Source: Elusimicrobiales bacterium (lineage in GTDB: Bacteria > Elusimicrobiota > Elusimicrobia > Elusimicrobiales > UBA9959). From it: 23,831 nt of DNA. The DNA lies in NCBI GenBank assembly GCA_049972095.1, contig JBMFKQ010000026.1, forward strand, positions 1 to 23,831, written 5' to 3'. This document shows positions 1 to 6,000 of this stretch, in pieces. Numbering within the stretch: position 1 is the first letter of the stretch; each line of letters starts with the position of its first letter. A program made the position numbers.

Positions 1-3000
1 GTCCCCCCTCGCAAAACTGAATTGCATATGTTTTGCTTGAGGGCTTTTCGAATCCCACGAAATGCTTTCGCATTTCTTAGCAAAGCACGGAAGGGGAGGG
101 ATTCGAACCCTCGGTCCGATTTTGTCGGACACAGACTCTCCAGGTCTGCGCCTTAAGCCGCTCGGCCACCCTTCCTTCATTGATAGATGGTGATATAAAA
201 AAAATGGTTGGGGTAGGATTCGAACCTACGTAGGGCAAAGCCCGACGGTTTTACAGACCGTTGCATTTGGCCGCTCTGCCACCCAACCACAGGGTGTTTA
301 TATAAGATAGTATAACAAATTTAAAAAGCTTAAGTGAAGCATTTAGAGATTTTTTATTATTTCCTTTATTTCTTTATTGATCTTCTCAAGGAGTATTTTG
401 TAGTTTGTGTTATCTGGATTAGTAGTAATATTAGTCTTTGACTTTATTGCTTTTTTGATACCTTGTGTTGAAAAACCTTCTGATATCATTTTTTTTATCT
501 TTTCAATGTTTTCTATATCAAGTCTGGTATATCTTCTATGCTTTGATGATAGTCTTATTGGTTTTATTATGCTAAATTTTTTTTCCCAATATCTGATTGT
601 GTGTTTTTTTAGTCCTGTTATTCTTGATACTTCGTCTATAGTAAAATAGTTTTTATTCTCCCTCATTTAAAAAAGGTTTTGGATGGTCTAAATCTAATTT
701 TTTTCATTGGCCCAACCATTATTTTTTCCTTTGTTCTTGGATTTCGTCTGATTGCTGGAAGATGTTCAACAACTCTAAAGGTTCCAAAACCAGATATCAC
801 AACCTTCTCACCATTTTTAAGTCTTTCTTTAATGAGATTAAATATTTTTTCTACTACTACCTGAGCTTCGAGCTTGCGGGGTAGTATATTTGATATTTCA
901 TGGATTATCTGTCTTTTGGTCATTGTTTCCTTCCCTTTTACCTGTATCTTTGTCTTCTTTTGATGGTTGATCTTGGAGAATATCTTTTGGTGTTCTAAAG
1001 TTTTTAATTCTTTCTTTAAATTCTTTTACCTCTTCTTCACTTATTGGTTTTGTAATTGGTTGAACCATATCAAATATGCTGCTTTTGATATAGATTTTAC
1101 ATCCGCATCTCACGGCGAGTGCAATTGCATCAGATGGTCTTGAATCTATAGCAATTGCTTTGTCATCATCCTTTAACAAATATATCTTTGCAAAAAAAGT
1201 ATTGTGTTGGAGTTCATCTATGACAATCTTTTCAACCTTCATGCCTGTCTGGTATATGATGCGATAAAGCAAATCATGTGTCATAGGCCTTGGTGAAACG
1301 GAGCCTGACATCTTCATAGCTATAGCCTGAGCCTCTACCGGACCTATCCATATTGGAATTATTCTTATCCCATGAACCTCCTCAAGGAAAACTATAGACT
1401 CTGTAAGGGATGATGCTATTGAGTATATTCTTACCTCTATTTCCTTTTCCATTTTATACCTCTATCTACTATTGTATTTAAGCTCTTCTCCTCTCATAAG
1501 CCGTTTTATGTTAGGTATATGTGTTAAAAATATGATTACTGCTGCTATAAGTATAAAATATTTGAATTCTGTTTTAATTGATGATGCTACTGATGAGATT
1601 GTGAATATTAGGGTTGATATAAGCGTTGCAGATGAAACATACCCTGTTAATCTTAAAACAATAAAAAAAACTATCAACGATAAAAGAATTTGAGTTGTTG
1701 CCAGTGCAAGAAAAACACCTGTTGATGTTGCAACTCCTTTTCCTCCCTTAAAGTTTAGAAAAACTGTGAATATGTGCCCTATTATCGCAGCAAAACCGCA
1801 TCCTATAACCATAATCGGTTCACAGAAGATTCTTGATGCGAAGTAGGTTGGAATAAAACCCTTTGTCATATCTATTGTAAATGTTATTAGACCGGCTTTT
1901 AATCCAAGTGTTCTGCAAACATTTGTAGCGCCTACATTTCCTGATCCATAATCTCTTATATCTATGCCATAAAATCTGCCGATAATATAGGCTGTTGGGA
2001 TAGAACCTATGAGATAGGATAATATTATTGCAATAACCTTGTCCATAATTATATTATAGAAAACTATTTTGAATTATTTTTTCTACTTTTCTAATATTCT
2101 CCTCTGTTAGTTTAAGTGTTAGCTTTATATGTGTTTGTGTAAAACTTTCATCTGTTACAAAGAAATTTGATTTTATCTCGCCAATAAGCCTGCTTTCTGA
2201 AAGTGGTATTTCAATGGTATAGTTCTTCCATTTATCTGTGAGATTTTTGTTTATCTCATCGATGAGAACATCTATATTTGTTGCATTGAGTGCTGATATC
2301 ATAATTGGTTTAAGAGATGAGAATTCAGTTAGATATCTTTTTGGATTTTCAACAAGGTCCATTTTATTGAAAACATTTATCAAAGGTATTTTATCGGCTC
2401 CTATTTCTAACAGTGTTTTTTTTACAACCTCATTCTGCTTTTTTATATCAGCACTCATATCGTGAAGATGTATTATTAGATCTGAGTATTTTATTTCTTC
2501 AAGGGTTGCTGAAAATGCAGCTACAAGGAGATGAGGAAGATTGTTTATGAAACCAACAGTGTCTATGAAAACAGCATAGAATCCCCCCTTTATCCTAACC
2601 CTTCTTGCTGTTGGATCAAGGGTTGCAAAAAGAAGATTATCGCTGTAAACATCATTCTTCCTAGATAGCGTATTGAGAAGGGTTGATTTACCTACATTTG
2701 TGTAGCCTACTATTGATACTATTGGTAGAGGTATCTGAACTCTTCTCAATCTTTGGATTTCTCTGTTTTTTCTTATATGTTTTATCTCATCAATTATCTT
2801 TGATATTCTGTCTCTTATCCTCCTTCTCTCATATTCTATTTTTCTCTCACCACTCCCTCTTGTTCCTATCATTCCATATTGTTGGTCGTAGTTATGCTGA
2901 AAACCTTTAATCCTTGATAGATTATATCTAAGCTGTGCAAGTTCTACCTGAAGTTTTCCTTCCTGTGTTTTAGCACGCTGCCTAAATATTTCTATTATTA

Positions 3001-6000
3001 GGAATGTTTTATCTATAACATTAACATTCCACATATCCATAAGATTTTTTGTCTGTGTGTATGATAGGTTTTTATTAAAAACAACTATTGAAAAATTAGC
3101 TTCTTTTATCATTTTTCTAATCTCTTCTGCTTTTCCCCTACCTATGTAGATTGCAGGGTTTATTTGATCTAGTTTTATTTTGAGCAAGGAGGATTTATGT
3201 ATTCCATAGGTTTTAAGCAGATTTTTTAACTCTTCCTCCTCATACTCAAAAGATGTATTATTCTTTTCAAATTTCAGTTTTATTATTATGATAAGTGCTT
3301 TCATATTTTTTGATAATCTCTCTCGCAATTCTATAAGGTTCAAATTGTGATTCAGAGTTTATTTCCAAAATCATCTTATGTGAATATCTTCTAAACCATG
3401 TATTTTGTCTCTTTGCATATTGAATAGATTTAAGTGTTATTCTTTCAATAGCCTCTTCCTTTGATATCTCTGATGAGAGATAAGAGAGTATTTCAGGATA
3501 TCCAAGTGATTTAAGTCCAGGCGAGTCATTGGGATATCCGTTTGATATAAGAAGCGCAGTTTCGCTGACCCATTTTTCAAAAATATCTATAGTCCTTTTA
3601 TAAATTCTTTGGCGCAGAAGTTTCTTATCCCATATAATGAAGACTGAAAAAGCATTGCCAAGCCGATTCTCAAACAGTTTATTTGATATAAGGGAAGAGA
3701 ATGGTTTTGATGTTATTAGGCATATTTCTATTGCTCTTATAACCCTTTGTATGTTGTTTGGATGTATTCTTTTTGCAGATTCCGGATCAAGCTCTTTGAG
3801 TTTGTCGTGGAGCTTTTCTCTGCCATATTTCTGTGCGTATTCCTGAAGCTGTGATCTTATCTCAATATTTTTTTCAGGAAGGGGATCAAGGGGATTAAAC
3901 ACAGCATTTATGTAAAATCCTGTTCCGCCGCATATTATTACTCTTGATGTATTTATCTGTGATAAAACATTTTTAAAATCATATAGATATCTTGCAACGC
4001 TATATGTTTCTATTGGATCAACAAAATCAATAAGGTGATATGGTATTCCATCTACAAGATAGATTTCTCTTTGAGGAGTTTTAGTCCATTTGCCTTGTGG
4101 CTTTGATGTGCCGTATGTGAGATGTTTGTATATTTGTCTTGAGTCAGCTGATATTATTTCAGCCCCAATTAAAGATGCAAGTGCAAGAGATATCTGAGTT
4201 TTTCCACTTGCGTTTGCTGCACATATTATAATTGGATGGTTTTTGGTTGAAAGCATTCAATCTTTAAAATATTCCTCACATTTCTGAGGCTTATTACATA
4301 ATATATGGGCTTTGCATTTTTCATTGCATACATCAGGAAGTTTGAAAGATATTCGTATATCACAGTCAAGATAATCAACTGCCATTTCGTTTATTTTTGC
4401 TGCATCATCTTTTGAGATACTTGTAAATACAATGCCAACCATATAGACATCCCCTTTTTTCTTTAGCCATGCTATTTTACCTTTAACAGAAATTACCTCT
4501 TTATTAAGATTCAAAACCATATTTAGTTCCTTTGTATGTGGTGGTTCATAAAATATTATTATCCTCATCCCACCTGCTGAAAGATCTGATAGAATTGCTG
4601 GCCTTTTCACATTTGTCTGATTTGTTTGGAAAAACTCTATCTCTACTGGTTCAAGTATGCCGTGAAGTATTGGTAGCCTAACATGCTTTCTTCTTTCCTG
4701 TTTATGTATCATAAATTCTCCTTACAATCAGTGTTTGTGGTTTAGCATTTACAATCTCTGCTTTTATCACATCGCCAGCATTTAACTTTTCCTTATTATC
4801 TATTATACAACAATTATAATCACTGATTGTTTTTCCGTAAGGGAAATCCCATACGATTACATCTTCAATACTTCCTTTTTTTGATTCAAGTATATTAGCT
4901 GCAACCTCTTTTGCCTTTGAAAGCATTATAGAGTGTCTTTTTTCTATCTCCTTGTCGCTTATATCTTTTAAAAATCTATCTGAAAACCTTGGTGAATATT
5001 TGAAACAATATACCTTTGAGAACCCTAATTCTTCTACTGCCTTAATAGAAGCGAGGAAATCTTCATTGGTTTCACCTGTAAAGCCGACAATTATGTCTGT
5101 AGTTAGTGATGTAAGTGGGTCTGCCTCTCTTAACATATTAACCATTTTTTTAAACTCATCATAGGTGTATCCTCTTTTCATGGCTTTTAAAATCCTATCC
5201 GAACCGCTTTGAAGAGGAATATGAATGTGTCTTGATATTTTTCGGTTTTTTTCATATTCTTTAAAAAAGGATTTATTGAAAAAAAGTGGATGAGGACTCA
5301 TAAATTTGATTACCTTTATTTTCTCTATATCTGATAATGCTTTTATTAAGTCAACAAAGTCATAGTTTTCATACCTGTATGCATTTACAGTTTGCCCAAG
5401 AAGTGTTATTTCAAAACTTCCTTGCTCTGCCTTTTCTTTTACCTCTTTTATTATTTTATCAAAGGCTATATGTCTAAGGGGTCCTCTAACTGATGGAACA
5501 ATACAATAGCTGCAGTTCATTGAGCAGCCTTTTGATATTGTCTGGTAAGAGGAATAGATTGGTTTTGGTTGTTCTTTTGGAGATTGAGATGTTTGAACAG
5601 GTATCTCTTCTATTATTTTAAACACCCTTTCATACGATTTTGCACCAACTATATGGTCTATATATGGAAACCTTTTTTTCATAAGTTCACCGCTTCTTTC
5701 AACAGCGCATCCCATGACAATAAGAATTTTATTGCTTTTCTTCCATTTTTTCAAACTGCCTGCAAGGCTAAAAGCCTTATCCTCCGCGTGTTGTCTCACT
5801 GTGCATGTATTTATGAGTATTATATCAGCATTTTTGTCCGAATCTGTTTCAGTAAATCCTTTTAAGATTAAAAGATCTCTTATCTTATTTGAATCATCTT
5901 CGTTCATCTGACAACCAAATGTGAATATCTTAAACCTTCTTATCTCTTGTGAATCTGATATATTCATCATACTCCTTAAATTCCTTCTCTAAGATGTAGA

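Follow-up and report, generated by a model that had tools for sequence, protein, structure and literature searches.

Introduction

Der (EngA, YphC), the GTPase of Escherichia coli and Bacillus subtilis described by model TIGR03594, is treated as near-universal among bacteria and has been put forward as a target for antibiotics; to our knowledge it is essential in every bacterium tested. Large ribosomal subunits of bacterial or related type are also built without Der in archaea and in mitochondria, the mitochondrial large subunit being assembled in the absence of a Der orthologue, and many other dedicated assembly factors operate in these systems.

Bacteria that naturally lack Der have also been described. 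Loss of der is known in classes of Patescibacteria/CPR (PMC12641178; PMC6744442; Brown et al. 2015 as cited there) and, according to passages of these papers, obgE is kept where der has been lost, RimM is missing, and loss of yqgF/RuvX is associated (PMC12641178, PMC6744442). The main text of a 2025 comparative paper couples the loss of der with that of uL1 in Paceibacteria and gives der as more than 90% conserved outside Patescibacteria; that text contains 0 occurrences of the name Elusimicrobiota (PMC12641178). An earlier note on the DNA analysed here had described Der as conserved throughout Bacteria, a statement that is out of date because its loss has been described for Patescibacteria/CPR (PMC12641178, PMC6744442).

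Here, we describe a window – the whole stretch of 23,831 nucleotides that was analysed – from an Elusimicrobiales bacterium whose genome is assembled in 58 contigs, contains 1153 N, and is 96.5% complete. This genome resembles those of the Der-less CPR in lacking der while keeping obgE, and RimM and RuvX are also missing in the Elusimicrobiales; it differs from the cases treated in those passages in belonging to a non-CPR phylum, in which several removals from one conserved slot appear to have occurred. It differs too from archaea and mitochondria with their many dedicated factors, as RbgA is absent throughout the phylum and EngB from the order. We found no earlier report of Der loss in Elusimicrobiota, the loss itself being already known from CPR.

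Results and Discussion

The der slot is closed in the window

The window contains a conserved block of genes, all on the minus strand. Its upstream end is formed by genes for a miaB-type methylthiotransferase (4702..5970) and a PilZ-domain protein (4257..4712), followed by miaA (3267..4256; TIGR00174, 226 bits), which keeps its position in related loci. Next is hflX (2054..3343, with a TTG start and an alternative start at 3304), coding for a ribosome-associated GTPase with a single G domain and organised as GTP-bdg_N, GTP-bdg_M and one MMR_HSR1 (Pfam). It belongs to the HflX family by its score of 383.4 bits (TIGR03156; cut-off 216.75), and reaches only 74 bits on the Der model. The adjoining plsY (1462..2046) encodes a 194-aa glycerol-3-phosphate acyltransferase belonging to the PlsY family (TIGR00023, 173.8 bits; cut-off 137.2), and is followed by a gene with a bifunctional nuclease (BFN) domain (898..1452; PF02577, 128.7 bits). 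An HU/IHF-like DNA-binding protein (663..923) and a MerR-family regulator (343..666) make up the downstream end.

Only 7 bp (2047..2053) separate the hflX stop from the plsY ATG, at the place where, by synteny over 52 related loci, Der-bearing relatives have a pgsA-like gene and der. Read directly, the spacing is that given in the earlier note, which had placed plsY at 1462-2046 and hflX at 2054-3304, although hflX may start at 3343; the note's assertion that no assembly gap is involved also holds, the slot being intact inside the contig with its flanking genes 7 bp apart.

Der is absent from the rest of the genome as well. When the whole genome was searched in six frames with TIGR03594, the highest scores were 99.5, 83.9 and 75.4 bits, far from the cut-off of 306.7, and these belong to the MnmE, Era and HflX ORFs; they are the same three scores on which the absence of Der had previously been claimed. 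The C-terminal KH-like domain of Der (PF14714) has a genome-wide maximum of 14.6 bits (cut-off 27.3), and tblastn with the Der of a relative recovers paralogous G domains only, at no more than 60 bits. Eight ORFs exceed the MMR_HSR1 cut-off – Obg, YchF, Era, MnmE, HflX, FeoB, IF2 and LepA – and each is matched at one place, so that none has tandem G domains in one polypeptide; nor does any ORF of the genome combine two G domains with a KH-like domain. The 14.6-bit KH-like match, in a 103-aa ORF on contig C20, was considered as a remnant of a split Der and rejected, because the ORF has no other family match.

It is extremely improbable that a der gene exists but escaped detection because of a gap in assembly or binning or a failure of the search. 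The 58 contigs with their 1153 N, and the fact that the relatives are mostly metagenome bins, leave some room for an oversight, but the slot is closed by a 7-bp junction inside a contig and two single-contig genomes of the order also lack Der. Moreover, the same search detects Der in 101 relatives and passes the cut-off in all 10 bacterial control genomes, as against 0 of 4 archaeal ones.

Removal of der from an ancient gene block

Among the related loci, the 12 that carry der all have it immediately upstream of plsY; hflX is found upstream of der in 10 of these, and a pgsA-like gene stands between the two in nine. Outgroup Der genes were reached via HflX matches in distant phyla, and in four of the five outgroup genomes der adjoins plsY and/or gpsA. 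The ancient block is miaB-PilZ-miaA-hflX-pgsA-like-der-plsY-gpsA-HU-merR, and the Der of E. coli and B. subtilis, which occupies its slot in 12 of 12 Der-bearing relatives, has been removed from it here without remnant.

Many other families of the phylum have lost der from this slot too. Of 40 Der-lacking loci, 37 have plsY next after hflX, or after hflX and the pgsA-like gene, without any match to Der. The gaps are mostly of about 10-180 bp, with two wider ones of about 0.8 (0.78) and 1.2 kb, and no der remnants were detected (E<=10) in the seven widest gaps between hflX, or the pgsA-like gene, and plsY. One wide gap among the seven is occupied by an unrelated ORF of 378 aa, encoded on the opposite strand.

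The earlier note had given the gene order of Der-bearing relatives as hflX-der-plsY-gpsA. The position of der beside plsY stands, but the ancestral order is hflX-pgsA-like-der-plsY-gpsA, which means that in the lineage of the window the pgsA-like gene has disappeared as well, gpsA has been relocated to contig C19, away from plsY, and the BFN-domain gene has been gained. It is because the pgsA-like gene has gone too that hflX abuts plsY at 7 bp. The BFN-domain gene occupies the place of gpsA in the window's own family and lies between gpsA and HU in related families.

Distribution of Der in the order and the phylum

None of 201 Elusimicrobiales genomes has a Der over the TIGR03594 cut-off, including 143 with a completeness of 90% or more and two assembled as single contigs, although most of the genomes compared are metagenome bins. 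Loss of Der is thus an old and real lineage trait fixed in the whole order, as had been claimed; it is common to the order but not confined to it, since Der is missing from 200 of the 301 genomes sampled in the phylum. The remaining 101 carry it with scores of 395-517 bits.

The loss cannot be put down to genome reduction. Der is kept in the 0.4-0.6 Mb genomes of genus g55, whereas families f6 and f8, in which Der is present in 0 of 4 and 0 of 27 genomes, include genomes of 4.2-4.6 Mb; relatives of 0.4 Mb thus have Der and relatives of 4.6 Mb do not. The smallest genomes of the phylum being Der-bearing, and Der-lacking ones reaching 4.6 Mb, is a further difference from the CPR as portrayed in the passages cited above. 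Another concerns uL1, whose loss is coupled with that of der in those accounts, whereas it is kept, with scores over the cut-off, in five of five Der-lacking genomes of this phylum; bL9 is likewise present in all five.

Probable independent losses of der

The history of the locus was reconstructed from five linked proteins taken from tblastn segments, the resulting trees being unrooted and the data heterogeneous in composition. In the mixture-model tree the Der-bearing genomes form two separate clades, and the minimum of two changes of state is forced by the starred branches. Constraining the Der-bearing rows to one clade was rejected (AU test on a 28-row subset, LG+G4; p=0.0013). An LG+G4 tree of 53 rows drew the window and its nearest relative to an unrelated low-GC group, and the mixture-model tree was preferred. 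The Der proteins of the phylum are monophyletic with respect to outgroups (support 100/99, with five outgroup Der sequences only), and the Der clade of families f4 and f13 lies outside the other Der clade rather than nested within it.

At least two events are required by this pattern, and four or more are most likely. Our preferred reading of these trees is that at least four independent deletions of der occurred while Der was apparently inherited vertically within the phylum, because the Der-bearing genomes fall into two separate clades and their Der proteins look vertically inherited. A different history, in which a single early loss in the phylum was followed by two regains through transfer into the same slot, is improbable. 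The minimum of two changes on an unrooted tree would in principle allow one loss and one regain, but regain has to account for der standing at the same place, upstream of plsY, in the two clades and four of five outgroups alike, as well as for a monophyletic phylum Der in which neither clade falls within the other.

Assembly GTPases in Der-lacking genomes

Obg is the assembly GTPase that is always kept: it scores 521 bits in the genome of the window and exceeds its cut-off in 197 of 201 genomes, and all 171 high-quality genomes of the phylum have it. RbgA is found in 0 of 301 phylum genomes, and EngB and HflX are patchy across the phylum. EngB (TIGR03598, cut-off 124.45 bits) has no match in the genome at E<=1e-25 and is over the cut-off in 0 of 110 genomes of the order, as expected from the earlier claim that it is missing, and Era cross-matches the EngB model at 43.3 bits. 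The absence of EngB is less remarkable because the cut-off is reached by no more than 6 of 10 bacterial control genomes.

HflX adjoins the empty slot, is a 50S-binding GTPase, and has been kept here and by the majority of Der-lacking families; its mitochondrial homologue is reported to take the place of Der in late large-subunit maturation. These features could suggest that HflX stands in for Der in late 50S maturation, but we regard this as very improbable given its distribution in family f2. A search of that family with the window HflX gives a match in only 43 of 88 genomes, and five of five near-complete genomes (98-99%) that lack one are also below the cut-off of the HflX model. These five genomes are without Der, EngB, RbgA and HflX all together.

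Is Der replaced?

No replacement for Der was found among the genes and rRNA positions compared. All G-domain ORFs of the genome fall in known families, over or near their own cut-offs, and the slot is flanked by lipid, nuclease-domain and DNA-binding genes. The 23S rRNA genes were compared in a set of three Der-lacking and five Der-bearing full-length genes, plus two partial ones, and no indel block of at least 6 nt distinguishes one group from the other. Thirty-eight aligned columns do so, and were rejected as a signature of Der loss: they represent background, because equally incongruent control partitions gave similar counts in two regions (13 vs 15 and 6 vs 5).

These results, together with the unchanged presence of uL1 and bL9, argue against a non-homologous or very divergent factor that does the job of Der, such that the function would persist without the gene family. 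We consider such a factor unlikely, while recognising that Der is essential wherever this has been tried, that its recurrent loss within one phylum suggests a common enabling feature, and that non-homologues are invisible to profile searches.

The der gene has been deleted from the ancient block, and it is very probable that it was lost at least four times in the phylum and that the 50S subunit is matured without it. Under this proposal Der would have become dispensable early in the phylum, with at least four independent losses thereafter, and 50S maturation would proceed without Der, without RbgA and, in the Elusimicrobiales, without EngB, leaving Obg as the only GTPase dedicated to large-subunit assembly that is invariably kept. 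The steps chaperoned by Der elsewhere might run unaided at these growth rates, or depend on a further factor or ribosomal change. More tentatively, and with somewhat less than even confidence, we suggest that a basal or near-basal change in the phylum, with a ribosomal or factor feature behind it, freed cells from Der and was followed by at least four deletions from one slot, with Obg as sole dedicated assembly GTPase in free-living bacteria with genomes of up to 4.6 Mb, some of them also without HflX.

Two thirds of the sampled genomes in this non-CPR phylum are without Der, in a pattern that points to repeated independent loss, and they provide a natural system for learning how the 50S subunit matures without it. 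Close Der-bearing and Der-lacking lineages are natural contrasts for what makes Der dispensable, and Der-less maturation should be testable at the bench because the Elusimicrobiales have a cultured member.

Other factors claimed to be missing from the order

Further losses claimed for the order fared differently. Those of RimM, RuvX and TruA are borne out: RimM and RuvX have no match in the genome at E<=1e-5 and are found in 0 of 39 and 0 of 46 genomes of the order, respectively, the rpsP operon reads rpsP-KH-trmD-rplS without rimM, and TruA is found in 0 of 36 genomes. TIGR03594 and the RimM and RuvX models serve as 'universal' marker genes, and where they are so used completeness estimates for these lineages would be biased low. 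The claimed loss of ClpX is weaker than had been stated and is not secure; 0 of 36 genomes are over the cut-off, but nine of them have ClpX-like matches of 174-328 bits. Loss of TadA is not secure either, the model (NF008113) being so strict that only 6 of 10 bacterial controls pass it, and 31 of 36 genomes of the order have sub-threshold deaminase matches.

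Organization of the hflX-plsY junction

The first 9.3 kb of the window carry minus-strand genes only. These encode a MerR-family regulator (343-666), an HU/IHF-like protein (663-923), a 184-aa bifunctional-nuclease (BFN) domain protein (898-1452; PF02577, 128.7 bits), PlsY (1462-2046; TIGR00023, 173.8 bits versus a cut-off of 137.2), HflX (TIGR03156, 383.4 bits versus 216.75; 2054-3343 if the start is TTG, otherwise 2054-3304), MiaA (3267-4256), a PilZ-domain protein (4257-4712), a MiaB-type methylthiotransferase (4702-5970), and a transaldolase/glucose-6-phosphate isomerase fusion (6163-9312). 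The plsY start codon is positioned seven bases past the hflX stop codon. Translation of hflX from the TTG at 3343, which gives the longest frame, entails a 77-base overlap with the miaA 3' end (3267-3343), and from the ATG at 3304 an overlap of 38 bases; either start is possible.

Der is absent from the assembled genome

The earlier note had reported that Der (EngA) – the tandem-GTPase 50S assembly factor – is missing from this genome, and searching the whole assembly in six frames (1.44 Mb, 34% G+C, 58 contigs, completeness estimated at 96.5%; contig C26 is the window in full) bears this out. The top scores against the Der model TIGR03594 are 99.5, 83.9 and 75.4 bits, none near the cut-off of 306.7. 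Open frames beneath all G-domain matches were extracted and scanned against family models, and correspond to MnmE, Era, HflX, FeoB, Obg, IF2, LepA, and YchF; all score above their own family cut-offs except FeoB, which is just below, and each of the eight has one match place for MMR_HSR1. Der's KH-like C-terminal domain (PF14714) has a best match of 14.6 bits in this genome versus a cut-off of 27.3, and a relative's Der used as a tblastn query finds G-domain paralogues alone, at no more than 60 bits. The assembled part of the genome therefore contains neither a split nor a relocated der. The assembly also has zero matches to RsgA, and nothing above the cut-off for TypA/BipA. The open frame behind the best PF14714 match is 103 aa long, and with no other family match it was rejected as a Der remnant.

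Distribution of Der in the phylum

The loss had been described as common to the order Elusimicrobiales, near-complete genomes included, and none of 201 genomes of the order (the window's genome counted in) passes the Der cut-off. These represent three families and 23 genera, 143 of them having completeness of 90% or more and contamination of 5% or less, and two being assembled as single contigs. No genome of the order exceeds 137.6 bits on the Der model, a score that falls on frames as long as MnmE (~455 aa); the same search puts 10 of 10 bacterial control genomes over the cut-off. As a trait of the order, however, the loss was drawn too narrowly. In an even sample of the phylum Elusimicrobiota, 101 of 301 genomes pass. 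Der is kept in two families of the window's own class, f4 (5/5) and f13 (1/1), and in f15 (78/89), f16, f20, f22, f23, f25, f26, f30, f31, and a few others. In the same sample it was not found in f1 (0/21), f2 (0/88), f8 (0/27), f18 (0/11), or f24 (0/10), nor in f5, f6, f7, f9-f12, f14, f17, f19, f21, or f27-f29, and the loss therefore reaches well past the order.

Genome shrinkage is not the cause of the loss. The smallest genomes, those of genus g55 in f15 (0.4-0.6 Mb), keep Der with scores of 385-486 bits, and no Der was found in families f6 and f8, some genomes of which reach 4.2-4.6 Mb at 97-100% completeness.

Deletion at a conserved position

Twelve Der-bearing and 40 Der-lacking loci were fetched and searched by tblastn with the window's proteins together with a relative's Der, GpsA, and a 187-aa neighbour, a PgsA-like CDP-alcohol phosphatidyltransferase. 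In all 12 Der-bearing loci plsY is directly downstream of der, and in 10 hflX is upstream, with the pgsA-like gene in between in nine; both f15 Der-bearing loci have no hflX close by. The ancestral block is miaB-PilZ-miaA-hflX-pgsA-like-der-plsY-gpsA-HU-merR. Among the Der-lacking loci, 37 of 40 have hflX followed by plsY without a Der match, 18 of these with the pgsA-like gene in between and 19 without it; of the other three, one is rearranged, one has no plsY close by, and one has gpsA directly after hflX. The gaps at the empty position are mostly ~10-180 bp, with two wider at 0.8 and 1.2 kb, and a search for der remnants at E≤10 in the seven widest, including these two, yielded none. The earlier proposal that der was excised from an hflX-der-plsY-gpsA order thus holds for the empty position – seven bases here – but the pgsA-like gene stood between hflX and der.

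In four of five genomes of other phyla der directly adjoins plsY and/or gpsA. The der-plsY-gpsA arrangement is therefore older than the phylum, and the absence of Der reflects deletion rather than a failure to acquire it.

In the family of the window's genome the pgsA-like gene has also gone from the block, and the BFN-domain gene stands where gpsA would be, with gpsA relocated to contig C19 (40.7% identity). A BFN-domain gene between plsY or gpsA and HU occurs in the order and in f6, f7, f8, and f12, and other families have none at this position.

Probable multiple losses of Der

A tree was built by quick search under the LG+C20 mixture model from concatenated MiaA, HflX, PlsY, GpsA, and HU segments (53 rows by 1290 columns), and agrees with the family and class assignments. 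A plain LG+G4 tree was set aside, because in it the row of the window was attracted to a low-G+C group to which it is not related. The LG+C20 tree has two separate Der-bearing clades, one of f4 and f13 (support 100) and one of f25, f15, f31, f23, f26, and f22 (support 95), with a minimum of two changes of Der state, two being forced by the starred branches. Constraining all Der-bearing rows to one clade lowers the log-likelihood by 102.5 units, and the AU test rejects the constraint (p-AU 0.0013; 28-row subset, LG+G4). In a Der tree with five outgroups, Der of the phylum forms a single group (100/99), and the f4 and f13 clade (100/99) lies outside the other Der clade (96/98) and is not nested in it, a topology compatible with vertical descent.

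If Der has only ever been lost, at least four independent losses are implied, because Der-lacking branches hang off the path joining the two Der-bearing clades; this count is inferred from an unrooted tree of linked genes, with the root assumed from the class grouping. The losses would fall in the order together with f6, f7, f8, and f12; in f5, f10, and f11; in f19; and in f14, f18 with f21, and f24 with f27-f29.

Remaining 50S assembly GTPases

Only Obg is retained throughout: 197 of 201 sampled genomes exceed its cut-off, and it occurs in all 171 of high quality, with all Der-lacking families covered. RbgA/YlqF passes in none of the 301 genomes of the phylum sample, and EngB in 120 of them, with a model that just 6 of 10 bacterial controls pass. 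EngB is absent from f18 (0/11), f24 (0/10), and, as previously claimed, the order (0/110); it is found in Der-lacking f8 (22/27) and not in Der-bearing f23 and f25, so that genomes have both Der and EngB, either one alone, or neither. Searches with the window's HflX recover the protein from 43 of 88 genomes in f2 and 15 of 89 in f15, and five of five f2 genomes without a query match (98-99% complete) are also below the cut-off of the HflX family model. It follows that some relatives are without Der, EngB, RbgA, and HflX together, which counts against HflX as a general substitute for Der. No replacement for Der was found.

The frames spanning obg in f2 are 459-512 aa (e.g. G042:C1:96729-97697) versus ~415-450 aa in most other families, which suggests an extension of 40-60 residues, not common to other Der-lacking families.

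Other factors reported as lost

The same note listed RuvX, RimM, TruA, ClpX, and TadA as lost in the order, and the first three are confirmed. Of 131 sampled genomes, 77 pass for RuvX/YqgF, with 0/46 in the order and none among sampled f5-f9 and f17 genomes, and Der-lacking f18 (11/11) and f24 (6/6) keep the gene. RimM passes in just 13 of 111, with 0/39 in the order and 0/7 in the rest of its class as sampled, and the operon of the window's genome, rpsP-KH-trmD-rplS, has no space for rimM. TruA passes in none of 36 genomes. ClpX too is below its cut-off (370.75) in all 36, but nine have ClpX-like AAA+ matches of 174-328 bits. For TadA none of 36 passes, but 31 have deaminase matches below the threshold, and just 6 of 10 bacterial controls pass this model.

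The ClpX-like genes (e.g. G003:C27:30681-31700) have frames of 460-600 aa with matches beginning near model position 50, and may lack the N-terminal zinc-binding region. In f15, RimM is present as a C-terminal half (31/31 sampled genomes; e.g. G217:C1:46377-46580), in frames of ~105 aa matching model positions 97-165 with 39-62 bits, under the cut-off of 66.2.

Comparison with CPR bacteria and ribosome features

Der, RimM, and RimP are missing in most CPR genomes, according to part of one report (PMC6744442), and sections of a study of Patescibacteria (PMC12641178, Mol Biol Evol 2025) describe several classes without der, a complementarity of der and obgE, and ties of der to uL1 and yqgF; Elusimicrobiota has no occurrence in its main text. 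A review of Era mentions Elusimicrobiota for patchy era alone, the main texts of two genomics papers on Elusimicrobiota leave Der, EngA, and GTPases unmentioned, and neither full-text nor broader literature searches retrieved a description of Der loss in the phylum. The original observation and its core interpretation stand, and this is a non-CPR case of a phenomenon known from CPR, with distinctive features: the deletion recurs at one conserved position, the loss is decoupled from genome size, Obg is the one dedicated GTPase that is always kept, and uL1 is retained. Both uL1 and bL9 are found in five of five Der-lacking genomes tested, unlike the coupling of der with uL1 described in Patescibacteria.

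Comparison of 23S rRNA from three Der-lacking and five Der-bearing genomes, plus two partial genes, revealed no indels that track Der, and no excess over control partitions of columns separating the two groups. Two f4 loci, L093 (G309) and L094 (G280), have 23S genes of ~3360-3370 nt with a ~370-nt insert at one site, near position 2427 of the 23S gene of G223; it is missing from the other six full-length genes compared, and may represent an intron or expansion segment.
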